Part shown: positions 3,278 to 33,562 of the stretch, one piece after another
Position numbering within the stretch: position 1 is the first letter of the stretch
Layout: each line of letters begins with the position of its first letter
Virus genome (UHGV): UHGV-0027450
Length of the DNA: 46,094 nucleotides
Direction: 5' to 3' (one strand)
Source: a virus
Notes under the pieces: model-generated
Databases searched by the model: none
Told to the model about the DNA's origin: nothing
The model's input: only the letters and a program-made list of their open reading frames with translations
Made by a program: the position numbers and the translations under genes

Positions 3278-3713
3278 TAATCACCTCTATCTGCACCTTA
3301 TGGATTGCTCCATCACCATCTGCACCTTCCGATTCAGGCTTATCTCTCCATAGTTTTGGTTGCCTGTTTTTTAACCAGAAAATCATTGATGTTGGGTCTG
3401 GTGGGTATCTTTTGATTGTTGGTGTGATTACTATTTCACCATTAACCGCTTTGATGTCGTCTTCTGGATGCTCATAACCGGTAGCCCTGCTGAACAATGC
3501 TTGAGCAACTCGCGCGTCAGCAATTTCCTTTCCTCGCCTTAAGGACTCAAGAAACGACGGGTGTTTGTGCTTCCATGCGTTTATTGTTTGCTCGCTCACG
3601 TCAAAGAAAGTAGCAAGCTGTTTATCAGTAGCGCCAAGCAGGCAATAGTTGTACGCCTGCTCGTCGTACTCAGGTTTGTATTCTGTCGGTCGCCCGATTG
3701 GTTTATCTGACAT
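3252..3713 (-). CDS. terS: terminase small subunit
   Basis: 153-aa ORF immediately upstream of and overlapping terL. HTH-like N-terminus (KQLATFFDVSEQTINAWK). SD agaggtga. Confidence 0.7.
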   Translation of the reverse strand: MSDKPIGRPTEYKPEYDEQAYNYCLLGATDKQLATFFDVSEQTINAWKHKHPSFLESLRRGKEIADARVAQALFSRATGYEHPEDDIKAVNGEIVITPTIKRYPPDPTSMIFWLKNRQPKLWRDKPESEGADGDGAIHKVQIEVISADKSNSN

Positions 3714-4683: not shown

Positions 4684-4986
4684 TTATTCACCTTTAGCCA
4701 GGCTTTCGAATTGCTGTGCGGTGGTGTCAAACTGAACCAGACTGACAACATCGTCGAACATGACAAATTCTCCTTCAGAATCTTCAGTCATGTCAGCGCC
4801 ACAATCCTGACCGAACGAGTCACAACCATCCATATCAAGCTCGTATCGCTTGAGTTTTGCGATATTTGATAAATTCAGCGCCAGTACAGCAAGGTCATAA
4901 ACCTCATCAGCGGTATACCAGGCACCATGCCCATGCATTTCAATACGGGATATGATTTCTTCTACACGTTGTTTTGTGATCGTCAC
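4684..4986 (-). CDS. hypothetical acidic protein (100 aa, GTG start)
   Basis: Track ORF. GTG start with SD ggaggtga at 6 nt. It overlaps the stop of the upstream gene. Confidence 0.5.
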   Translation of the reverse strand: MTITKQRVEEIISRIEMHGHGAWYTADEVYDLAVLALNLSNIAKLKRYELDMDGCDSFGQDCGADMTEDSEGEFVMFDDVVSLVQFDTTAQQFESLAKGE

Positions 4987-14337: not shown

Positions 14338-14348
14338 TTAGTGAGGTG

Positions 14349-15392
14349 ATGCAAATGGGTATTCTCAATATTAAACCAGCAGAGCGTTCCGGTTCTCGCG
14401 TGGTCATCGGTATTTCAGGCCAGTCTGGTAGCGGAAAAACATATAGCGCACTTAAGCTGGCTCGTGGGATGGTTGACTCACCAGAAGAAATCGGATTCCT
14501 TGATACTGAAAACGGTCGCGGTCGCCTGTATTCAAACATCCTTGATGGTAAATTCCTGCACGCTGATATGTATGCACCATTCAGCCCTGCTCGTTACCGT
14601 CAGGCCATTGAAGAATTTCAGGCTACTGGCGTTAAGGTTCTTGTTATTGATTCAGGCTCGCACGAATGGGAAGGTGAAGGAAGTTGCACGGAGATTGCTG
14701 AAAAGCCGCTGCTTAACGGCAAAAAGATGGCTGACTGGAAGCGCGCCAAAGCTGAACACAAGAAGTTCATGAATGCCATGCTGCAAAGCAATATGCATAT
14801 CATTGTCTGCCTTCGCGCTCGCCAGAAAACTGACTTCGCAAACCCGAAGGAGCCTGTATCACTTGGGCTGCAGCCAGTGTGCGAGAAAGATTTCATGTTC
14901 GAGATGACTGTGAGCATGATGATGCACGATGGAGGCAAAATTCAGGAGTTCACCAAATTACCAGAAGAACTACGCCCAATCTTCTTTGAGTCTGGTCGTG
15001 AAAGTGTTCGTCATGGATACATTGGCGAGGCTCACGGTCGCGGACTCATCAAATGGGTGGACTCTGGCGTTAAAGTTGACGAAGAGTTTGAGTCATGGCG
15101 CTCACGACTTCAGCTCTCTGCCGCAAAAGGCATGGAAGGACTGAAGGAAGAGGCAAAATCAATACCTGATAACCTGAAAGATAAGATTCGTGCAATCTGG
15201 CCTTCTCTCGCTGCTTCTGCTGCTGAATATGATCGCATTGAGTCTTTCATCAATGATGAGCAATTATCTCCTGTGGTAATAACTCCGCAGGATAATTTCA
15301 ATCCTGCAAAACTGGCTAAACCGCAACTACAACATCCAGAACCGCAGGAAGAAAAAACCGAACATAAACCAACCCCAATTGAAGGATTTTAA
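14349..15392 (+). CDS. Sak4-like RecA-fold ATPase (AAA_24 family), putative single-strand annealing/recombination mediator
   Basis: Walker A GISGQSGSGKTYSAL and Walker B VLVIDSGSHEW. It sits between the exonuclease and SSB genes. SD gaggtga; the ATGs at 14349 and 14355 are both possible starts. Confidence 0.6.
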   Translation: MQMGILNIKPAERSGSRVVIGISGQSGSGKTYSALKLARGMVDSPEEIGFLDTENGRGRLYSNILDGKFLHADMYAPFSPARYRQAIEEFQATGVKVLVIDSGSHEWEGEGSCTEIAEKPLLNGKKMADWKRAKAEHKKFMNAMLQSNMHIIVCLRARQKTDFANPKEPVSLGLQPVCEKDFMFEMTVSMMMHDGGKIQEFTKLPEELRPIFFESGRESVRHGYIGEAHGRGLIKWVDSGVKVDEEFESWRSRLQLSAAKGMEGLKEEAKSIPDNLKDKIRAIWPSLAASAAEYDRIESFINDEQLSPVVITPQDNFNPAKLAKPQLQHPEPQEEKTEHKPTPIEGF

Positions 15393-31302: not shown

Positions 31303-31346
31303 TTGACGTAGATTGATGCGGCGTTTATAGTTAGTGACGTAGAAAC
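31303..31346 (+). promoter_or_regulatory. promoter/operator for the plus-strand ParB/DnaN-like island
   Basis: TTGACGTAGATTGATG (31303-31318) and GTGACGTAGAAAC (31334-31346). The minus strand of 31262-31300 carries a TGcTAAAAT extended -10 for the membrane-protein operon. Confidence 0.5.
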
Positions 31347-31366
31347 AACAATAAATGTTAGAGGTG

Positions 31367-31546
31367 ATGAAAATGGAAGGTGAAACAGAAGTTGTGGTTG
31401 TTGATATTTTTTATCAAGCATCAGACGAAGGCATACCAGCTCACTGGTGCTGCCAGTTTATTCGCGATGGATGGACTGGTTATGAATATTTTGATAACTC
31501 AGAAGATGCATATAACTATGCTTACTCACATGGATTTCAAGGGTAA
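31367..31546 (+). CDS. hypothetical protein (59 aa)
   Basis: ATG 31367 with SD agaggtga. Confidence 0.45.
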   Translation: MKMEGETEVVVVDIFYQASDEGIPAHWCCQFIRDGWTGYEYFDNSEDAYNYAYSHGFQG

Positions 31547-31549
31547 ACA

Positions 31550-32359
31550 ATGAAAACACTCAGCAAAATCTATTCAGACAAAGAAACGCGAAACGGCATC
31601 GCTGTTAACAAAACCTATCTCGTGCCAGTGGAGCAAATCTATCTGGAGCCTGGATACAACATCCGTGAAGCAGATGAGCAGCATGTAGAATATTTCGCTC
31701 AGTGCTGGGAATCAGGTCAACCATTACCAGCATTAACAGTTATTCCAGATGAGAAGGGAATCCCCATTCTTGGTGGTCAGCATCGCTATCTCGGTGCGCT
31801 GCGTGCCATTGAGCGTGGAGCGCCAATCATTCGCATTGAGTGCAAGGATTTCACTGGCGATGAAGCGAACAAAATTGCCTTCATGGTGTCATCCAGTCAG
31901 GGTAAGCAGCTCGACCCGTTTGAGCGCGCAAATGCTTACACGCGACTGAAAGGTTTTGGCTGGACCAACGAGGAAATCGCCAAAAAGGTAGGTCGTTCAG
32001 TATCTGACGTGCAAATGCATTTGTCGCTGGGTGGTGTTACAGCGGAAGTAAAAGCGCGAATCAGCGCCGGGCAAATCAGCTATGCAAATGCCGTAGCGGT
32101 GACGCGCGAGCATGGCGATGATGCGGTAAAAGTTATCGACGAGGCAGTCGAAGAAGCGAAGGCGCAAGGTAAGGACAAGGTCACAGCCAAGGTGCTGAAG
32201 TCGAAAAAGATTAAGCCAGTGGACCGCCTGATTGAGTTACTGAAGCAAGCAGATCACGTGATTCTTCCTGCTGGCCATGTCGTGGCAGAGGATGAGGAAT
32301 TCATCCAGATTCCTGTTGCTGACATTCACGAGGTTATGGCAATTCTGGAGAAGATGTGA
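31550..32359 (+). CDS. ParB-like nuclease-domain protein with C-terminal HTH
   Basis: IPILGGQHRYLGALRA matches the ParB/Srx GxxR core. An HTH follows at EEIAKKVGRSVSDVQMHL. Confidence 0.7.
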   Translation: MKTLSKIYSDKETRNGIAVNKTYLVPVEQIYLEPGYNIREADEQHVEYFAQCWESGQPLPALTVIPDEKGIPILGGQHRYLGALRAIERGAPIIRIECKDFTGDEANKIAFMVSSSQGKQLDPFERANAYTRLKGFGWTNEEIAKKVGRSVSDVQMHLSLGGVTAEVKARISAGQISYANAVAVTREHGDDAVKVIDEAVEEAKAQGKDKVTAKVLKSKKIKPVDRLIELLKQADHVILPAGHVVAEDEEFIQIPVADIHEVMAILEKM

Positions 32360-32610
32360 TGAATAAGTATGAAGAACTTGATGCGATGATTATGGGGATT
32401 CTTGATTTCAACATTCCAACACCATTCATGGCAATTCATTTTTCTGACGGTATACATAGTGGCATATATGCAGAGTGTGAAAAGCTGGCGACAAAACCGC
32501 ATGAAGGTTTTCGTGTTCTTGACCGCAGGTTGCAAGCGCTAAGAAAGAAAGGCCTTATCGTGTCGCATGGCGCAAGCAAAGGATGGGTGAAGATAAATCA
32601 TGAACGCTGA
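32359..32610 (+). CDS. hypothetical protein (83 aa)
   Basis: ATG 32359 with SD ggagaag. Coupled to the ParB-like gene stop. Confidence 0.5.
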   Translation: MNKYEELDAMIMGILDFNIPTPFMAIHFSDGIHSGIYAECEKLATKPHEGFRVLDRRLQALRKKGLIVSHGASKGWVKINHER

Positions 32611-32773
32611 ACAATTCATCGAAAAACAGCTACGCGCCAAGCTGCCCGACATTGACCAGAGGGCAATTGATGCGGCAATTCAGTATTACAAGCGCAATCA
32701 GAGCGCAAAGAAGGGTGGCATTTTTGAAGAATGCCTGAAGGTTGCAAAAAAACACATGATTAAGGTGAAGTGA
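32600..32773 (+). CDS. hypothetical protein (57 aa)
   Basis: Translates MNAEQFIEKQLRAKLPDIDQRAIDAAIQYYKRNQSAKKGG... The ATG lies 11 nt inside the upstream gene. Not in the track. Confidence 0.35.
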   Translation: MNAEQFIEKQLRAKLPDIDQRAIDAAIQYYKRNQSAKKGGIFEECLKVAKKHMIKVK

Positions 32774-32982
32774 TGATTAACACAATTGATTATTTATACT
32801 TGATTCTTGTTCCTACAGCTAAAGCGTTCAGAGGGAGATACGAGGAAGGGAAAGCGCCATTCAAGGCAACCAGAAATTGCAGGCAGTGCAGGATTGGGTT
32901 TCTTGATAAAGAACAGGAGAGAGAATGGCAAAAATTTTGCCTTGAAAATGAATTAAAAAACGATGCGTCTCTTGAATTTTGA
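32773..32982 (+). CDS. hypothetical protein (69 aa)
   Basis: ATG 32773 with SD aaggtgaag. Overlaps the stop of the upstream gene. Confidence 0.45.
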   Translation: MINTIDYLYLILVPTAKAFRGRYEEGKAPFKATRNCRQCRIGFLDKEQEREWQKFCLENELKNDASLEF

Positions 32983-32991
32983 GGTGAAGTG

Positions 32992-33528
32992 ATGAAACTA
33001 AAAATCAGCAAACTATTACTTGAATCAGCACTAATATTTCAGGCGCGCAACGATGTGAGATATTACCTGAATGGTATCTGCTTTATGCCTGATGGTCGCA
33101 TTTCCTCAACTGACGGTCATCGCGCATTCATTGGTGGCAGCCATGACAACGAACTGGCTGAAAATGTGATTGTAAAGGTCAGCAAGTCTCCGACAAAACG
33201 CTATGACTACGCCATCATTGATACTAAGTCGAAAATTGCGACGTATCATGATAAAGCTGGCGTGATGGTTGGTGCTGGCATCTGCGAAGAGATTGACGGT
33301 CGATTCCCTGATATTGATCGCGTGATACCAAAGAAAACGAAATCAGCAGAGGAAATTGGTTTCAATGCTGGCTACCTTGTTGATATTGAGAAGGTGGCGA
33401 AGCTGTTTAATCCTAAATTCTGTTGCGTTAAATTTGAGTTGAATGGAAATACAAATGCCTCGGTTTGCTGTCTTAGCGCTCCTACAGGCGAGAACGCAAA
33501 GATTGTTGTTATGCCTATGCGTCTGTAG
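32992..33528 (+). CDS. truncated beta sliding clamp (DnaN) derivative, 178 aa
   Basis: NDVRYYLNGICFMPDGRISSTDGHRAF aligns with E. coli DnaN QDVRYYLNGMLFE...TVATDGHRLAV. EEIDGRFPDIDRVIPKK aligns with KLVDGRFPDYRRVLPKN. The C-terminus EIGFNAGYLVDIEKVAK...AKIVVMPMRL aligns with EIGFNVSYVLDVLNALK...AYVVMPMRL. This is about half the length of the host beta clamp. Confidence 0.65.
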   Translation: MKLKISKLLLESALIFQARNDVRYYLNGICFMPDGRISSTDGHRAFIGGSHDNELAENVIVKVSKSPTKRYDYAIIDTKSKIATYHDKAGVMVGAGICEEIDGRFPDIDRVIPKKTKSAEEIGFNAGYLVDIEKVAKLFNPKFCCVKFELNGNTNASVCCLSAPTGENAKIVVMPMRL

Positions 33529-33531
33529 TAA

Positions 33532-33562
33532 TAAAAAACCCGCATAATGCGGGTTTTGTTTA
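33532..33562. terminator. bidirectional intrinsic terminator
   Basis: ataaaaaacccgcat-aa-tgcgggttttgttt. Confidence 0.7.

Follow-up and report, generated by a model that had tools for sequence, protein, structure and literature searches.

Pocket residues kept and ring-closing residues absent in a half-size phage homologue of the DnaN sliding clamp

What can a sliding clamp be used for when half of it, including the surfaces that close the ring, is missing? This question is raised by a gene in the UHGV virus genome UHGV-0027450 (46,094 nucleotides; this whole stretch of DNA is referred to below as the window). The gene lies on the plus strand between positions 32992 (ATG) and 33528 (TAG, stop codon included) and encodes a protein of 178 amino acids (aa), called here the half-clamp, whereas the bacterial beta sliding clamp DnaN (E. 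coli P0A988; PDB 1MMI and 2POL) has 366 aa. The initial annotation of the locus, made from the DNA letters without database searches, described the product as an internally deleted copy of the host clamp that acts either as a dominant-negative subunit of host rings or as a decoy for clamp-binding proteins. The analysis below indicates that the protein belongs to a widespread phage family in which the pocket for clamp-binding peptides is the best-conserved part. With moderate confidence, it is proposed from sequence and predicted structure that the half-clamp may be a soluble pocket module which binds clamp-motif peptides off the ring, as a decoy or an adaptor, and is not a clamp.

Homology to DnaN, predicted fold and peptide-binding pocket

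According to the phmmer analysis of the single sequence, the best PDB match of the half-clamp is E. coli DnaN (1mmi, E = 4.8e-11), and all matches are beta sliding clamps. A profile of the half-clamp family scores 108 bits against E. coli DnaN, to which the half-clamp itself is about 35% identical. The conserved blocks are collinear with DnaN, as the initial annotation had noticed, and the alignment extends significantly beyond these short motifs; the blocks identical to E. coli are DVRYYLNG, TDGHR, DGRFPDxxRVxPK, EIGFN and the terminal VVMPMRL. Curated models place the protein under their cut-offs, with 17.1 bits for PF02768 and 15.5 bits for PF02767 in Pfam (cut-off of 27) and 33.3 bits for TIGR00663 (cut-off of 137.65). 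Judged by the direct comparisons, the homology to DnaN is real and lies far beyond chance, and the description of the product as a half-size DnaN homologue is confirmed.

Two local alignments to DnaN were obtained with HMMER, one pairing aa 7-153 with DnaN 136-288 and the other pairing aa 119-178 with DnaN 314-366. Alignment and predicted secondary structure identify aa 1-101 (32992..33294, plus strand) as the counterpart of DnaN domain II (about 130-237). The first beta-alpha-beta-beta-beta repeat of this domain is intact, while the second has no helix and carries the nine-residue loop SKSPTKRYD (aa 64-72) in its place; the replaced element is the second helix of domain II (DnaN about 197-208). 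All eight strands and the first helix are kept, so that domain II is not reduced to its start, as had been supposed. It is followed by the II-III interdomain connector DGRFPDIDRVIPKKTKS (aa 102-118; 33295..33345, plus strand), assigned by alignment, and by a single beta-alpha-beta-beta-beta repeat (aa 119-178; 33346..33525, plus strand), which local alignment equates with the C-terminal half of DnaN domain III (314-366). The half-clamp ends at the native C-terminus of the clamp, ...VVMPMRL.

The identity of the third repeat was decided by local alignment scores. The score was 67 against DnaN 313-366 and 25 against DnaN 251-312, the background for unrelated repeats being 19-25, and the C-terminal half of domain III was favoured in 118 of 134 family members. 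The possibility that the repeat stands in for the N-terminal half of domain III was rejected on these scores. Absent from the half-clamp are thus domain I (DnaN 1 to about 129), for which neither Pfam nor phmmer against the PDB gave a match, the N-terminal half of domain III (DnaN about 251-313) and the second helix of domain II. The initial annotation was right about the loss of domain I; as to domain III, it is the N-terminal half that is gone, and the C-terminal half is retained. Three repeats, one of them helix-less, remain of the six in the full three-domain clamp of about 366 aa, and the lost segments hold both halves of the ring-closing interface as well as two of the four DNA-channel helices of the retained region. 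By sequence comparison, the architecture is domain II minus its second helix, the connector and the C-terminal half of domain III, that is, a "1.5-domain" protein.

The AlphaFold2 program, supplied with an alignment of 134 sequences that are 26-52% identical to the half-clamp, gave a model with a predicted local distance difference test (pLDDT) value of 97.3 and a predicted template modelling (pTM) value of 0.91. In the region corresponding to domain II, the model contains strands at aa 2-6, 29-31, 37-40, 44-48, 59-63, 73-77, 82-86 and 92-101 and a helix at aa 7-16, with no helix between strands 59-63 and 73-77. Its elements are a beta-alpha-beta-beta-beta repeat (aa 1-48), a beta-beta-beta-beta repeat with no helix after its first strand (aa 59-101), the connector and a second beta-alpha-beta-beta-beta repeat (aa 119-178). 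The predicted fold is that of a beta clamp. BFVD contains numerous predicted structures of viral proteins that match it in size and shape, with TM-scores of 0.8-0.89.

In the bacterial clamp, the domain II scaffold, the connector and the C-terminal half of domain III together form the pocket for the clamp-binding motifs QLxLF and QxxLxF. A 2024 review (PMC11139829) lists R152, L155, T172, G174, H175, R176, L177, P242, R246, V247, V360 and M362 in subsite I of this pocket, and H175, N320, Y323, V344, M362, P363, M364 and R365 in subsite II. Nineteen residues from the review were mapped onto the half-clamp via the alignments, with the E. coli numbering verified on PDB-derived segments, and 17 of them were mappable. 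Sixteen of the 17 are identical to E. coli, the exception being L177, replaced by alanine (A45). In domain II, residues R23, L26, T40, G42, H43, R44 and A45 correspond to DnaN R152, L155, T172, G174, H175, R176 and L177; in the connector, P106, R110 and V111 correspond to P242, R246 and V247; in the domain III part, N125, Y128, V172, M174, P175, M176 and R177 correspond to N320, Y323, V360, M362, P363, M364 and R365. By residue identity, the half-clamp therefore appears to share subsites I and II of the pocket with DnaN.

The same positions stand out when the family is compared. Among 134 members, the mean frequency of the top residue is 0.76 at pocket positions and 0.37 at all others (Mann-Whitney p = 9e-8). 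Nine of the 13 positions conserved in at least 90% of these members belong to the pocket (R152, L155, T172, G174, H175, P242, Y323, M362 and P363 in DnaN numbering), and P106, the counterpart of P242, reaches 99%; the other four are the pocket-adjacent D150, Y154 and G157 and the initiator methionine. Since the pocket is the best-conserved part of the family, selection evidently acts on this peptide-binding site. In the interface that closes the E. coli dimer, I78 and F106 pack against I272 and L273, with additional ion pairs of the K74/E298 type (PMC11139829), and all of its residues (I78, F106, K74, I272, L273 and E298-E304) fall in segments that are absent from the half-clamp. The retained C-terminus does contribute to the protein-binding pocket, as the initial annotation had stated; the contribution to the dimer interface that had also been assigned to it is not supported.

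Family, names and genomic context

When 1.84 billion cluster representatives were searched with the profile, 4189 of the 50%-identity clusters had E < 1e-3 and 513 had E < 1e-10. The family members range from 170 to 240 aa, nearly all of the best 150 clusters being 170-215 aa long, and full-length DnaN proteins (373-378 aa) first enter the list near E = 1e-15. The number of close homologues of the half-clamp was 754. In TBLASTN searches the family was found in 303 phage records, including Skatevirus, Dhillonvirus, Murrayvirus, a lambdoid Hafnia phage and phages of Vibrio, Acinetobacter, Pseudomonas, Burkholderia, Ralstonia, Pantoea and Morganella; it is also present in prophage-like regions of plasmids. 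This depth, together with the low identity to E. coli DnaN, does not agree with an internally deleted copy of the host gene: as far as sequences can tell, the half-clamp is a member of an old and diverse phage family of proteins descended from the beta clamp, and not a recent derivative of host dnaN. The median isoelectric point of the family is 8.25, i.e., mildly basic, with Lys/Arg conserved on the two retained helices.

The family already has names, and they disagree. Its PHROGs entry is phrog_3007 (2.1e-63, aa 1-178 against profile positions 1-186 of 190), which bears the name "RusA-like Holliday junction resolvase", as do RefSeq records (NC_054639, NC_054647, NC_054651, NC_048113, NC_047804 and others). 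A resolvase function would rest on this strong profile match and on the repetition of the label; sequence, profile and predicted fold are all those of a beta clamp, and neither Pfam (E <= 1) nor NCBIfam (E <= 0.1) gave a match to the RusA family. The resolvase explanation is scarcely credible, and the label looks like a propagated misannotation. In several GenBank records the gene is called "DNA polymerase" or "DNA polymerase III beta subunit", and since annotators already use the latter name, the clamp homology in itself is not new. In a search of the literature on the protein and the clamp family, no paper describing the structure or function of the half-clamp family was found. The resolvase name in PHROGs and RefSeq and the "DNA polymerase" label in GenBank need correction.

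Two further features were observed at the termini of family members. Many members run 10-30 residues past the MPxR end, often with a Trp motif (PSWA, PTWL or GWL) and frequently with a final -AA that resembles a tail of the ssrA/ClpX type; the window protein has none of these. Such extensions may be autoinhibitory or degron tails, to judge by their sequences. In some close homologues, called as 192-193 aa, 14 additional N-terminal residues, MPEGCKTTHGEGEK, precede the conserved MKLK; they probably stem from an upstream start-codon call and are not a real extension.

In every phage lineage examined, the half-clamp gene is housed in an early, replication or recombination module. The order in the lambdoid Hafnia phage yong1 is cII-[half-clamp]-O-P; in the Vibrio phage PVP-XSN the gene is located beside Dam and SSB, in Murrayvirus with genes for primase, Dam, helicase, VRR-NUC, ExoVIII and Erf, and in the Pantoea phage LIET2 after helicase and VRR-NUC. 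In the T7-like phage RS-PII-1 it is an early-region gene that precedes those for primase, helicase and polymerase, and plasmid-borne prophages likewise have it in early regions. The Skatevirus phages Skate, Akira, C1, Sf11, swi2 and seszw, which are siphophages infecting Salmonella and E. coli, share about 90% nucleotide identity with the window. The gene set of Skate includes primases, helicases, SSB, a RecA-like ATPase and ExoVIII, with no DNA polymerase and no annotated clamp loader; lacking a polymerase, it must use those of the host. A general tie of the half-clamp to phages without a polymerase was considered and rejected, as the Dhillonvirus phage "rolling" (Pol A) and RS-PII-1 encode their own.

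Evidence on the necessity of the gene comes from a study of genome reduction by CRISPR (clustered regularly interspaced short palindromic repeats) in the Skatevirus seszw, from which many mutant genomes were deposited (PMC9825161). At an identity of at least 99%, the coat gene is present in 72 records and the half-clamp gene in 47; among the seszw genome-reduction records, counted as those without a listed host, the numbers are about 70 and about 44, respectively. Mutant 280S (MZ375350.1, positions 3281-3436 at the locus; 37.7 kb), a small-plaque clone, has lost genes 16 (the half-clamp) and 17, and mutant 200L (MZ375296.1; 38.2 kb), with large plaques, retains gene 16 and has lost genes 17 and 20; this comparison of plaque size with gene 16 involves two clones of roughly 69 mutants. 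The retention of the gene in 200L amid deleted neighbours had pointed to an essential function, a conclusion reversed by the record counts and by 280S. The half-clamp gene is dispensable for laboratory propagation and hence accessory. Because the gene can be deleted in seszw mutants, an accessory or host-manipulation role fits better than a core part of the replisome.

Candidate functions

As the docking pocket is kept and the ring-closing parts are lost, binding of clamp partners off DNA seems the most likely function, and the decoy proposed in the initial annotation is structurally plausible, given a pocket that is nearly identical to that of E. coli and best conserved in the family. The half-clamp would be soluble and would form no canonical ring, and its conserved task would be to bind peptides of the clamp-binding-motif type away from the DNA-loaded clamp. 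When expressed from an early or replication-type transcription unit, it could compete with host beta for some clients, candidates being the alpha, epsilon and delta subunits of Pol III, Hda, Pol II, Pol IV, Pol V, MutS and MutL. Alternatively, it might tether one client to phage replication intermediates. Either outcome would bias host replication and repair toward the phage, which itself encodes no DNA polymerase.

Several points weigh against an off-DNA decoy, and most of them speak at the same time for a genuine sliding clamp or processivity factor, which would keep host Pol III, or the phage's own Pol A where there is one, attached to phage DNA. The family is also carried by phages with a polymerase of their own ("rolling" and RS-PII-1), which leaves room for a processivity role, and its mildly basic character with conserved Lys/Arg on both retained helices also fits direct DNA binding. 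Besides, a decoy able to strip Pol III off host beta would harm a phage that depends on Pol III. The processivity explanation can be imagined either as a non-canonical ring, in which four copies of the three-repeat protein would supply the 12 repeats of a D2-symmetric clamp ring, or as an open, loader-independent tether like the herpesvirus UL42 and UL44. It agrees with a clamp fold bearing an intact polymerase-docking pocket and with a gene that is always in replication modules, and E. coli beta* (domains II and III) is reportedly an alternative clamp. Against it, one domain II channel helix is missing family-wide, neither canonical ring-closing surface is present, no phage clamp loader is annotated in Skate, and the gene can be deleted from a phage that stays viable without another clamp of its own, though here the host clamp could cover the loss. 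On balance this function is unlikely, while still deserving more weight than the other alternatives. Co-assembly with host beta monomers into poisoned rings, the other role suggested in the initial annotation, is very improbable. A DnaN homologue is indeed made inside the host cell, and the edges of clamp folds can in principle pair strand to strand; however, the host interface joins residues of domain I (I78, F106 and K74) to I272, L273 and E298-E304 in the N-terminal half of domain III, the phage protein has neither of these parts, and conservation in the family is centred on the pocket and not on the edge strands. Since every interface residue sits in the lost parts, a dominant-negative action is not supported.

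The ligand of the pocket could also be encoded by the phage itself, namely the C-terminal tail of an adjacent protein that would be protected or regulated by binding, the clearest candidate being a CII-type QxxMxF tail. A survey of 104 IMG/VR half-clamp loci (48 clusters), located by a degenerate DNA motif scan, found ends of the form Q..[LIMVFY].[FL] in 10 of 83 distinct upstream-gene tails and in 1 of 3061 control open reading frame tails, although this pattern search was post hoc. The matching tails come from two unrelated families, lambda CII homologues and an 81-aa membrane protein (...QHSYIF). The FtsH degron of lambda CII is RSEQIQMEF (PMC8138137), and it fits the hexameric clamp-binding-motif pattern QxxLxF; the order cII-[half-clamp] is realised in yong1, and the open reading frame directly upstream in the window terminates in ...ASLEF. 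On the other hand, lambda CII has the same tail although lambda is without a half-clamp gene, and in lambdoid phages anything inserted before O follows cII, so that gene order alone may explain the tails. The phage of the window is virulent and has no cII, its 70-aa upstream reading frame is an insertion absent from Skate, and in most Skate-like relatives a different upstream gene has the tail ...KQHMIKVK, without the motif. A phage-encoded ligand of this kind is considered improbable, less so than a poisoned ring.

Comparison with known systems helps to place the off-ring pocket module. The E. coli protein beta*, which Skaliter, Paz-Elizur and Livneh reportedly described in 1996 as a 26-kDa product of an internal dnaN start, comprises domains II and III and is said to oligomerise into a functional clamp. 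Both proteins are N-terminally truncated and begin at about the start of domain II (M1 of the half-clamp lies near DnaN residue 130), but beta* has all of domain III and both domain II helices, whereas the half-clamp is without the half-domain for head-to-tail ring assembly. T4 gp45 and PCNA have two complete domains, form closed trimers and employ a loader; the half-clamp has 1.5 domains and resembles bacterial beta in sequence, and the annotation of Skate lists no phage loader. In the herpesvirus factors UL42, UL44, PF-8 and BMRF1, clamp folds are active without a closed ring or loader, which provides a precedent for an open module holding a polymerase peptide. Twort Gp168 and G1 gp240 are blockers of the host clamp, while the half-clamp instead copies the receptor site of the clamp; similarly, MuC of phage Mu docks on the host clamp as a ligand (PMC12867686), and the half-clamp resembles the docking site itself. 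A 1.5-domain, pocket-only module is not found among the nearest precedents (beta*, gp45/PCNA and the herpesvirus factors). DnaN itself differs from the half-clamp in having domain I, the N-terminal half of domain III, the second domain II helix and the ring-closing interface, and the half-clamp, in addition to its low Pfam and TIGRFAM scores, is phage-borne and deletable.

A broader generalisation is put forward tentatively and is more doubtful than the off-ring module itself. Phages of many lineages may carry a free-standing clamp receptor pocket as a portable reader of QxxLxF-type tails, which, depending on the phage, would capture host clients (Pol III, Hda, TLS polymerases and MutL/S) and so redirect replication and repair or, in temperate phages, would perhaps shield clamp-motif-like degrons such as the FtsH tag of CII. 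If so, the host would be manipulated by mimicry of a hub's docking site and not of its ligands, for which no description was found in the literature searched. The beta clamp is the central hub of bacterial replication and repair and an antibiotic target. The phage proteins hitherto known to act on it are blockers (Gp168 and gp240) or docking ligands (MuC), and a confirmed pocket-only family would represent a new route to rewiring the host replisome. Competition for Pol III by phages that lack a polymerase, Skatevirus for example, could likewise be accounted for by such a protein, which with 178 aa and very high predicted confidence would offer a natural minimal scaffold for studying or screening clamp-binding peptides.

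The following upstream tails were recorded. CII homologues directly 5' of half-clamp genes in four IMG/VR loci and in yong1 (positions 4684-4983 of its locus) end in ...SEQITINF, ...SEQFTINF, ...SQIDMLF or ...SQVTMNF. In ten IMG/VR loci, an 81-aa open reading frame ends 13 nt before the gene for a 224-aa variant of the half-clamp; the 81-aa product is predicted to contain a membrane helix, and its tail is rich in Ser/Ala and terminates in ...(Q/H)HSYIF. This reading frame is possibly spurious, as the DNA appears GC-rich.

The plus-strand island around the gene

The half-clamp gene is the last one of a plus-strand island (31355-33528) that comprises four small open reading frames, a ParB/Noc-like protein and the half-clamp. 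The initial annotation had given the strand and the ParB-like companion correctly and had counted three small proteins instead of four. It had also assigned the island its own promoter and terminator, and elements of both kinds are present. A candidate promoter of the sigma-70 type (TTGACG, 17 nt spacer, TATAGT) lies at 31303..31331 on the plus strand; the scan matched 10 of 12 consensus positions, and the assignment is by consensus match alone. A scan of the sequence also revealed a putative bidirectional intrinsic terminator hairpin at 33535..33557 (both strands), at the end of the island and of the convergent head operon. In phage Skate the island is annotated alike, with terminators at the homologous site. 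The half-clamp reading frame is preceded by the ribosome-binding site GAGGTG (32981..32986, plus strand), read directly from the sequence 5 nt 5' of the ATG, and an alternative in-frame GTG start at 32989 would make the protein one residue longer.

The ParB/Noc-like DNA-binding protein (269 aa; 31550..32359, plus strand) belongs to the same transcription unit and corresponds to phrog_1033 (1.3e-86). Its Pfam matches are HTH_ParB (2.7e-10) and KorB only, TIGR04285 and TIGR00180 remaining under their cut-offs; the Pfam ParBc domain ("ParB-like nuclease") was not detected at E <= 1, so the earlier designation of this product as a ParB-like nuclease is not supported. In place of the canonical GERRxRA arginine patch of ParB, which serves binding of cytidine triphosphate (CTP), the protein has LGGQHRYLGALRA, and its sequence suggests that it may be a ParB-fold protein without CTP binding. 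The protein was rejected as a conserved partner of the half-clamp, as the upstream protein in Dhillonvirus is unrelated.

Two of the small reading frames lie directly before the half-clamp gene. The first encodes 57 aa (phrog_4439; 32600..32773, plus strand); in Skate and seszw it abuts the half-clamp gene directly, and it was lost together with the latter in mutant 280S. The second, immediately 5' of the half-clamp, encodes 70 aa (phrog_3379, labelled "endonuclease"; 32770..32982, plus strand) and has the C-terminus ...NDASLEF. It lies on a 219-bp segment that is extra to phage Skate and is located between 14-bp direct repeats AGGTGAAGTGATGA, each comprising a ribosome-binding site plus start (32763-32776 and 32982-32995). 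Because Skate has only one copy of this repeat, at the junction of its 57-aa and half-clamp genes, the 70-aa reading frame is a moron-like insertion at a translation-initiation repeat. A 74-aa downstream product was considered as a conserved partner and dismissed, the equal length in Lumpael and in plasmid prophages being coincidental and the sequences unrelated.

A scan of the window proteome for clamp-binding motifs gave scattered, unconvincing matches only. The RecA/Sak4-like AAA ATPase (14346-15392) starts with (V)MQMGIL and ends with ...PTPIEGF; both peptides are loosely like clamp-binding or SSB-tail peptides, maybe by chance.

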